From sequence record PV245934.1: 64,000 nucleotides of DNA. The stretch is one strand, 5' to 3'. Positions within the stretch are counted from its first letter, which is position 1. Each line of letters starts with the position of its first letter. The DNA is from Escherichia phage sutha. This document shows, piece after piece, positions 56,214 through 57,952 of the stretch. The notes under the pieces were generated by a model that had not been told where the DNA came from, did no database searches, and saw only the letters and a program-made list of their open reading frames with translations. Made by a program: the position numbers and the translations under genes.

Positions 56214-57143
56214 ATGTCAGGATATAATTCTCAGAATCCAAAGGAACTCAAAGATGTCATTCTAAGACGTTTAGGGGCTCCAATTATTAATGTTGAGTTA
56301 ACACCCGATCAAATCTACGATTGCATCCAGCGTGCCCTAGAATTATACGGTGAATACCATTTTGATGGACTTAACAAAGGTTTTCATGTATTTTATGTAG
56401 GAGATGACGAAGAAAAATATAAGACCGGAGTCTTCGATTTAAGAGGTTCAAATGTATTCGCAGTAACTCGCATTCTCCGCACGAATGTTGGATCAATAAC
56501 GTCAATGGACGGAAACGCTACATATCCATGGTTTACTGACTTTCTTTTAGGAATGGCTGGTATTAATGGTGGAATGGGGACTTCTTGCAATAGATTTTAT
56601 GGACCAAATGCCTTTGGAGCTGATTTAGGGTATTTTACCCAGCTTACCAGTTACATGGGAATGATGCAAGATATGCTTTCGCCTATTCCAGACTTTTGGT
56701 TTAATTCAGCAAATGAACAGCTCAAAGTCATGGGAAACTTCCAAAAATACGATTTAATTATTGTAGAAAGCTGGACTAAATCATATATTGATACTAATAA
56801 AATGGTTGGAAATACAGTAGGATATGGAACAGTCGGTCCACAAGATAGCTGGTCATTATCTGAACGATATAATAACCCAGACCACAATTTAGTTGGTCGC
56901 GTTGTTGGTCAAGACCCAAATGTTAAGCAAGGTGCTTATAATAATCGTTGGGTGAAAGACTATGCTACAGCTTTAGCTAAAGAATTAAATGGCCAAATTT
57001 TAGCACGTCACCAAGGCATGATGCTTCCTGGCGGTGTTACAATTGATGGACAGCGCTTAATAGAAGAAGCTCGATTAGAAAAAGAAGCATTACGCGAAGA
57101 ATTATACTTGCTCGATCCTCCGGTGGGAGTGTTAGTTGGATGA
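56214..57143 (+). CDS. 13: neck protein gp13
   Basis: 309 aa. Confidence 0.9.
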
Positions 57144-57952
57144 ATTATACTAAAATTTACAACTCTCTTATAGAAAGATCTCTTAAAAGAGGTCTCAATA
57201 AGAAAAAATTAGATTATTATACGGAATCACACCATATTGTCCCAAAATCTATGGGAGGAGATGACTCTAGAGAAAATAAGGTTTTACTGACAGCAAGAGA
57301 ACATTATTTTGCGCATGAGCTTCTTTTTAAAATACACCGAAATTCTGAAATGGCTTATGCCTTAATAAAATTCTCCAAGGGTACAAAAGAGCAGAGAATT
57401 GTAAGTAAAGATTACGGATGGATTAAAGAGGAAACATCCAAAATTAGATCAGAAACCACTAAAAAGTTTTGGGCAAATCTACCACCAAATTTAAAGAAGG
57501 AACGAATTAAAAAAGCTGGAAAAGGTATTAAAAAAACTAAATCTTTATGGGCAGATGAAAAGAGAAAAGAAGTTAATGCAAATATTCAAAAAGCTTCTGT
57601 GAAATATTTAGAATCGCTGTCAGAAAACGAAATGTTAGAATATAAAGAAAGATGTTCTAAACAAATGAAAGATTTTTGGTTTGAGCTTAAAAGCGACCCC
57701 CAAAAATACGAAAAGTATTTAAATAAACTATCTAAGGGTCTTGCAAAAGTCGAAAAAAGAAATTGTCCACATTGTGGAATTATATGTGATGTAGGAAATT
57801 ATGGAAAATACCACGGCGATAAATGCAAAGTTATCACGGGTGTATCTCATAGCAGAGAAAAATTAAAATGCCCGCACTGCTCTAAAATCATGGATAAGTC
57901 TCACGCTAAAAGATACCATTTTGACAATTGCAAATTTAAGAAGGTCGAATAA
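57140..57952 (+). mobile_element. free-standing HNH homing endonuclease gene between genes 13 and 14
   Basis: 270 aa; HNH core ESHHIVPKSMGGDDSRENKVLLTAREHYFAH; C-terminal Cys/His zinc fingers; start overlaps gp13 stop (ATGA). Confidence 0.75.

Follow-up and report, generated by a model that had tools for sequence, protein, structure and literature searches.

A predicted Mob-type HNH homing endonuclease gene at the 3' end of neck gene 13 in Escherichia phage sutha and other T-even phages

Introduction

A 64,000-nt stretch of DNA from Escherichia phage sutha (PV245934.1; hereafter the window, with all positions counted from its start) carries an open reading frame (ORF) for a predicted HNH homing endonuclease between neck genes 13 and 14. 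Among the described systems that it resembles is MobE of phage T4, which is encoded by a free-standing gene between conserved genes (nrdA and nrdB), apparently has no dedicated promoter and is found sporadically among T-even phages. MobE nicks DNA 122-126 nt into nrdB (Wilson & Edgell 2009, PMC2790892), and MobE-dependent nicking and co-conversion provide the precedent for the mechanism considered here (PMC2790892). In I-HmuI, I-TevIII and the NUMOD3-containing HNH group, an extended DNA-binding region follows an HNH beta-beta-alpha-metal core, and the known members act as site-specific nickases or cutters that drive gene conversion (PMC2988022).

By its sequence, the gene in the window is already known as an annotation and is an ordinary member of the well-studied T4 Mob/PHROG 655 family. 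Because a near-identical ORF has already been deposited, mostly with annotation, in T6 and some 36 other phages, it carries little weight as a discovery. The points that distinguish it are minor: it lies in a late structural operon, its zinc knuckles are in tandem, its NUMOD3 repeats are undetectable and its cassette rewrites the last codons of gene 13. In this work, we compared the locus with its counterparts in other phages, and we consider it highly probable that the ORF belongs to a Mob-type HNH homing endonuclease gene (HEG) cassette, located at the 3' end of gene 13, that spreads by nicking or cutting the HEG-less allele and being copied during repair. Genomes with and without the ORF between genes 13 and 14 are referred to as HEG+ and HEG-, respectively.

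Results

An HNH protein encoded between genes 13 and 14

The first-pass annotation of the window, made from the sequence alone, had proposed that a 270-aa ORF with an HNH core, located between genes 13 and 14, encodes a free-standing HNH homing endonuclease. Both the ORF and the core are present (residues 30-59, SHHIVPKSMGGDDSRENKVLLTAREHYFAH), and this central proposal is borne out by homology to Mob proteins, intact ligands and a patchy presence in 46 of 510 related records. The locus is arranged as follows.

56214-57143, plus strand: gene 13 (gp13, neck protein, head-tail adaptor Ad2; PHROG 211, 2.7e-43)
57140-57952, plus strand: endonuclease gene, predicted (ATG start, 270 aa plus stop; free-standing Mob-family HNH, orthologue of T6 ORF154)
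57950-57956, plus strand: right boundary TAA-T-ATG (endonuclease TAA at 57950-57952, a single T, gene 14 ATG at 57954)
57954-58724, plus strand: gene 14 (gp14, neck protein, head closure Hc2; Pfam T4_neck-protein, 1.3e-138)

The endonuclease ORF is no chance reading frame, since its product matches PHROG 655 ('homing endonuclease') over residues 1-267 with an E-value of 2.7e-52 and Pfam HNH_4 (PF13395) with 25.7 bits, above the curated cut-off of 22. The Pfam HNH model (PF01844) scored 17.9 bits, under its cut-off of 21.4. A tblastn search of 50,697 phage records identified relatives in 1,063 of them, among these T4, where the match fell on mobE between nrdA and nrdB (30.8% identity, covering 85% of the query). 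BLASTP against the T4 MobE translation gave 33% identity with an E-value of 3e-28. No paralogue of the endonuclease was found within the window. The following features were assigned to the protein.

57230-57316, plus strand: HNH catalytic motif (residues 31-59, HH-x13-N-x8-H-x3-H, predicted beta-beta-alpha fold)
57410-57748, plus strand: central helical region (residues 91-203, five long predicted helices, at the position of the NUMOD3 repeats of the family)
57764-57826, plus strand: first CCHC knuckle (residues 209-229; C209, C212, H225, C229)
57869-57931, plus strand: second CCHC knuckle (C244, C247, H260, C264), the C-terminal finger found family-wide

In an alignment of 72 homologues, H31, H32, N46, H55 and H59 are invariant, as are C244, C247, H260 and C264. 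We take these residues to form a colicin-type HH-N-H-H catalytic and metal site and one CCHC zinc site, with roles assigned by analogy with colicin E9 and the Cas9 HNH domain. An AlphaFold2 model built with the 72-sequence alignment reached a pLDDT of 92.4 and placed strands at residues 28-32 and 47-51 and a helix at residues 52-66. Foldseek searches with this predicted model returned HNH domains as the best matches, but these were weak. A sequence search of solved structures gave no significant match, with marginal matches to HNH motifs (E 0.07-0.7, the best of them at 0.07-0.13).

The C-terminal Cys/His zinc fingers noted in the first-pass annotation correspond to two tandem CxxC-x12-H-x3-C knuckles at residues 209-229 and 244-264. 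The second knuckle aligns with the MobE finger CPHCGK..RWHYDKC. The first is an extra copy common to the four closest homologues (P0001-P0004), of which at least three (P0002-P0004) adjoin gene 14. Separately, the C-terminal knuckle alone (CPHC..H.DNCK; 57869-57949, residues 239-269) is 41-71% identical to many otherwise unrelated viral contigs (L033-L055), which suggests a zinc-finger module shuffled among phage endonucleases.

The protein is also like T4 MobE in its N-terminal MNYxKIYN, in its HNH motif (..HHI.P...GG.D..EN.V.LTAREH..AH) and in its C-terminal CPHCG..H.D.CK knuckle. In contrast to MobE, which has one finger, the window protein has the second tandem knuckle. The central region of MobE contains repeated SEET/TEET..K..S motifs of the NUMOD3 kind, whereas Pfam NUMOD3 was not detected in the window protein. 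Of the 72 homologues, 49 have Pfam NUMOD3 and 56 have Pfam HNH. Because NUMOD3 is common in the family and not obligatory, its absence marks a divergent subgroup and is compatible with membership in the family. Taken together, these comparisons support the assignment of the protein to the Mob-family (PHROG 655) HNH homing endonucleases, for which nuclease activity is a reasonable inference.

A variant gene 13 end travels with the ORF

At the left junction, the endonuclease ATG (57140-57142) overlaps the gene 13 stop TGA (57141-57143), giving the ATGA (57140-57143) described in the first-pass annotation. At the right junction, the TAATATG that it reported is present; the ORF and gene 14 do not share this junction as an overlap and instead abut, with one T between them. 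In T4 (NC_000866), the two neck genes are direct neighbors, as the first-pass annotation also stated: gene 13 ends at 94553, gene 14 begins at 94555, and the junction reads GGT TAA T ATG. This empty site was found in T4 and ten other phages, and the locus is polymorphic for presence or absence of the ORF. Window gene 13 is collinear with T4 gene 13 (92.9% nucleotide identity). In the window, the endonuclease stop replaces the gene 13 stop of HEG-less phages, so that the stop-T-ATG context of gene 14 is kept exactly. A TTG start for gene 14 at 57921, given in the program-made list of ORFs, was rejected as a mechanical artefact.

The inserted DNA is the ORF itself, and gp13 and gp14 are encoded by separate, complete ORFs, as is proper to a free-standing gene. 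An Rfam scan of the window yielded tRNAs only and no intron near the endonuclease gene, which sets the gene apart from the intron-encoded I-HmuI and I-TevIII. A foreign origin could not be argued from base composition, as the 31.5% GC of the endonuclease gene is not distinctive next to the 38.7% of gene 13 and the 30.4% of gene 14.

In order to define the ends of the insertion, we aligned the locus from nine HEG+ genomes (the window, RPN226, CrRp10, G9062, SHFML-26, T6, F1, fPS-2 and T4_ev151) and eleven HEG- genomes. The difference at the left end is the following.

57123-57143, plus strand: left cassette end, a variant gene 13 3' end (GTG GGA GTG TTA GTT GGA TGA)

All nine HEG+ genomes have this sequence, preceded by CC(G/A), while all eleven HEG- genomes read CCA TTT GGA ATT TTG GTA GGT TAA. 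The seven HEG-linked substitutions lie entirely within the last 21 nt of gene 13. They alter the C-terminus of gp13 from ..PPFGILVG (HEG-) to ..PPVGVLVG (HEG+), and they create a Shine-Dalgarno-like GGGAG (57125-57129) 10 nt 5' of the endonuclease ATG. To the right, HEG+ and HEG- sequences are indistinguishable from exactly TAATATG onward.

A column-by-column scan of the 20 genomes, spanning ~3.5 kb, found no other fixed or strongly associated column in the rest of genes 13 and 14, and none in 970 nt upstream (wac) or 860 nt downstream (gene 15). These regions had been examined for a more distant target, and no fixed or strongly linked column pointed to one. When the 48 nt ending at the gene 13 stop were used as a database query, 60 records matched with at least 90% identity, while HEG- phages reached at most 84%. 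Fourteen of the 60 matches were partial, and the remaining 46 (by subtraction) equal the number of HEG+ records. Because of the linked 21 nt and the sharp right boundary, the mobile unit can be placed at approximately 57123-57949 (~830 bp), including replacements for the last seven codons of gene 13. A practical point for genome annotation is that the ..VGVLVG form of the gp13 C-terminus goes along with the element.

The ORF is sporadic, and its copies are younger than their flanks

A comparison of the 13-14 junction across T-even genomes had been recommended in the first-pass annotation, which would have been contradicted by conservation of the ORF at this locus in all relatives. The distribution is clearly otherwise. 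By megablast of the 13-ORF-14 segment, the neck genes were found in 510 records, essentially all Tequatrovirus, and the ORF in 46 of these, always at this one site. A tblastn search (E ≤ 1e-30) recovered the same 46 records with 95.4-99.6% protein identity, all between genes 13 and 14. Thus, carriers make up about 1 in 11 close relatives (~9% of Tequatrovirus records), and the junction is uninterrupted in T4, T2, RB9, RB51, AR1 and others.

The 46 records represent 37 named phages, including T6 (T6ORF154), and most are annotated as 'homing endonuclease' or 'HNH endonuclease'. These copies of T6 ORF154 (e.g. RPN226, CrRp10, YUEEL01 and fPS-2, at the identity given above) are of equal length at the same locus, and the ATGA and TAATATG junctions are identical in the eight HEG+ loci that were inspected. 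There is no substantive difference between this group and the window copy, which is a further allele; the public annotations are automatic. A scan of IMG/VR added one near-identical copy (L024), the remaining matches being distant Mob-like proteins or the zinc-finger module alone.

All catalytic and zinc ligands are intact in 40 of the 46 records, and the ORF is split in the other six (F1, FN, SHFML-26, CJY920). Two of the splits map to a homopolymer.

57530-57536, plus strand: A7 homopolymer (one A lost in vB_EcoM_F1 and SHFML-26, splitting the ORF)

This frameshift could reflect genuine decay or an error in sequencing the homopolymer. Since it is a single-base loss in an A7 run, the frameshifted copies are no firm evidence of decay.

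Two of the HEG+ records are noted here in their own right. The genome named as an evolved T4 (LR597660, 'Escherichia phage T4_ev151'; L010) carries the endonuclease gene that is absent from T4. It would be direct evidence of transfer if it were a laboratory recombinant, and the sole paper citing it gives no history. In vB_EcoM_G9062 (L005, ~3298-3566), gene 14 contains 55 nt that all the others lack, and the record gives it as a truncated CDS of 558 nt. Either this essential neck gene is truly disrupted or the extra sequence is an assembly artefact.

To assess how the ORF has evolved, we compared diversity within and beside it. Seven intact endonuclease copies gave a dN/dS of 0.063, indicating purifying selection, and dS was 0.097 for the endonuclease gene versus 0.27 for the adjacent gene 13. 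Similarly, nucleotide diversity (pi) was 2-3 times lower in the endonuclease gene (0.022) than in the 100-nt stretches flanking it (0.07 and 0.044). Because diversity within the gene is below that of the flanks, the endonuclease copies coalesce more recently than the flanks. The HEG- phage SA20RB is identical to the window over the ~100 nt shown 5' of the 21-nt variant and over the ~145 nt shown at the beginning of gene 14. This combination of selective maintenance, an ancestor younger than that of the flanks and many flanking haplotypes fits a gene that has spread horizontally among varied backbones.

Diverged homologues occupy the same site

Three metagenomic T4-like contigs (L021-L023) encode homologues with 50-56% identity directly 5' of gene 14, all with tandem CCHC knuckles, and the gp14 proteins of these contigs are 69-79% identical to window gp14. 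The 3' end of gene 13 lies upstream of the homologue in L022 and L023 (tblastn), and L021 has a short PPFGILLG* frame at the contig edge. One contig has the ATGA overlap, while the other two have a 9-nt spacer and a T4-like ..PPFGIL.G gene 13 end. Because these homologues adjoin gene 14, the endonuclease lineage appears tied to the site across diverged T4-like phages.

The endonuclease ORF of L022 ends in ..NCKLVG* on TTAGTGGGGTAATATG, resembling the T4 gene 13 end TTGGTAGGTTAATATG (..LVG*). This end suggests an ancestral insertion point a few codons inside gene 13, rather than one that was strictly intergenic. As a separate observation, L021 (contig SRR33991139_568291) has a second Mob-family endonuclease gene at 1621-2217 (PHROG 655, 1.4e-34) between genes 14 and 15, so that homing endonuclease genes stand on both sides of its gene 14.

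Predicted transcription and translation of the cassette

Unlike mobE, which lies in the early/middle nrd region, the window gene is in a late morphogenetic operon. No exact match to the late promoter TATAAATA is present on the plus strand between 49776 (upstream of gene 9) and 61899. A dedicated late promoter was rejected, as one-mismatch variants of TATAAATA occur at chance frequency (218 found versus 216 expected), and sigma-70-like sites likewise occur at chance level. Because of these results, the endonuclease gene is best described as a cassette without its own promoter consensus inside the late 13-14 unit. Late expression, as proposed in the first-pass annotation, is plausible from position alone: the gene is on the late-gene strand and coupled to gene 13 through ATGA, with no exact TATAAATA nearby.

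Translation of the endonuclease probably depends on the ATGA coupling and on the GGGAG motif supplied by the linked substitutions. A hairpin sequestering the ribosome-binding site, as in mobE and I-TevI, was also considered and rejected, since the 4-bp CUCC/GGAG stem is no more stable than in shuffled sequences (z 0.36-0.52). Furthermore, MobE has an internal terminator, whereas the sole terminator-like hairpin inside the window ORF is a weak 5-bp palindrome.

Upstream of these genes, the 32-nt gap between wac and gene 13 contains a terminator-like GC-rich hairpin (56184-56201, plus strand; TGGGGCCGCAAGGCCCCA followed by a T-rich run), which the SA20RB record annotates as a rho-independent terminator. 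Because of this hairpin, genes 13-14 and the endonuclease gene would need read-through or an unrecognised promoter.

Discussion

The comparisons above are best accommodated by a homing cycle that would proceed as follows. A cassette of ~830 bp (57123-57949) sits at the extreme 3' end of gene 13 and brings its own variant of the last seven codons. By analogy with MobE and other free-standing T-even endonucleases, its gene would share a late transcript with genes 13 and 14, and its translation would be coupled to that of gene 13. When an HEG+ phage and an HEG- T-even phage infect the same cell, the protein would introduce a nick or a cut into the HEG-less allele, at the 13/14 junction or close to it, and recombinational repair from the HEG+ genome would copy the cassette into the HEG-less genome. 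The carrier genome would itself be immune, its target site being disrupted by the insertion together with the seven linked substitutions.

Thus, in mixed infection the protein most likely nicks or cuts T-even DNA that is free of the HEG, at the end of gene 13 or close by. As the first-pass annotation had supposed, the 13/14 junction is a plausible target. It is the best candidate because the only carrier-linked differences lie there, and the diverged homologues in the same position also favor it. The comparative data narrow the candidate recognition region to ~30 bp around the gene 13 end (CCATTTGGAATTTTGGTAGGTTAATATGG). A more specific and joint claim, that the protein is an active, late-expressed Mob-type nickase whose site is made up of the final ~20 nt of gene 13 and the beginning of gene 14 and whose tandem CCHC knuckles, also present in the three homologues beside gene 14, are the specificity module, we regard as possible, though somewhat short of probable.

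If this claim is correct, the C-terminus of the essential gp13 would change from ..PPFGILVG to ..PPVGVLVG at every homing event. Homing would also install the sequence 5' of gene 14, making the element hard to delete, and crosses with T6-type phages would show local exclusion of T2/T4 neck-gene alleles. The modest value of the locus is as a convenient test case, in the late operon of the model phage T6 and with the T4/T2 empty site known to the base. Because a T6 carrier, a base-exact empty site and a ~30-bp candidate region are all at hand, target mapping, self-immunity and marker-exclusion work should be straightforward.

Several observations weigh against homing at this junction. MobE nicks well inside the neighboring gene (122-126 nt; PMC2790892), and for that reason a target at the junction itself is not guaranteed. 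Nor do the linked substitutions appear to be universally required for self-immunity, because two of the three diverged HEG+ contigs keep ..PPFGIL.G. At the level of the protein, the fold searches yielded weak HNH matches only, and NUMOD3 (PF07460), the usual DNA-binding repeat of the family, was not detected at E ≤ 0.1. The GGGAG motif, at 10 nt from the endonuclease ATG, is rather far from it. We found no co-conversion tract, as flank diversity among the HEG+ genomes matched that of subsets drawn at random from the 20 genomes (permutation P 0.14-0.82). Because no tract is detectable, recent homing and an older insertion followed by heavy mosaic recombination look alike in the comparative data; homing by very short tracts, or homing followed by later recombination, would be compatible with this result. 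Lastly, a literature search found no paper on this endonuclease, and the homing role of the gene is a prediction.

The missing co-conversion signature, with flanks that are fully mosaic relative to gene presence, is also what would be expected if the gene were a once-mobile endonuclease that is now an inactive or decaying passenger, inserted once long ago and since redistributed by loss and T-even recombination. The split ORFs of F1, FN, SHFML-26 and CJY920 and the degenerate or undetected NUMOD3 repeats point the same way, and T4 itself has defunct endonuclease genes such as I-TevIII (PMC2790892). However, decay is difficult to reconcile with a dN/dS of 0.063 and with catalytic and zinc ligands that are all intact in 40 of 46 records. 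The lower diversity of the gene relative to its adjacent 100 nt, and the later coalescence of its copies, also argue against an old passenger, and the single-A loss in F1 and SHFML-26 may be a sequencing error. On balance, we consider this explanation improbable. Strong purifying selection could instead reflect a domesticated nuclease kept for the benefit of the phage, whether through exclusion of rival neck or packaging genes, through local recombination or segmental amplification (as reported for T6 SegB) or through attack on co-resident DNA. Such a role would agree with the occupation of the same position across diverged phages. Additionally, the gene supplies the sequence directly 5' of essential gene 14, which would penalize imprecise deletion, and a recent study showed that SegB helps T6 to escape host defence (PMC13096335). 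A presence in only ~9% of Tequatrovirus records is not expected of an advantageous gene, however, and no sequence feature separates domestication from ordinary homing, in which active homing also selects for nuclease function; we judge domestication to be quite improbable.

Degenerate HNH domains normally lose the HH-N-H-H catalytic and metal residues. The full set is invariant in the 72 homologues, and HNH_4 scores above its threshold, both of which speak against a non-nuclease role, in which the protein would be a zinc-finger regulator that binds DNA or RNA and retains an HNH-like fold. The two CCHC knuckles, the long helical region and the weak structural matches to solved HNH nucleases are compatible with such a regulator, and I-TevI doubles as a transcriptional autorepressor (PMC2988022). 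Nevertheless, we find this role exceedingly improbable. The decaying passenger, the domesticated nuclease and the non-catalytic binder are each less well supported than a homing endonuclease.

Outside the 13-14 region, the window contains a tRNA cluster (33555-34507, minus strand) of 10 genes: Arg, Asn, Tyr, Met (anticodon CAT), Thr, Ser, Pro, Gly, Leu and Gln. T4 has 8 tRNA genes, and the Tyr and Asn genes of the window cluster are T6-like. Beside the cluster, an ORF at 32979-33533 (minus strand) has weak matches to endonuclease and homing endonuclease PHROGs (5e-7 to 5e-8).

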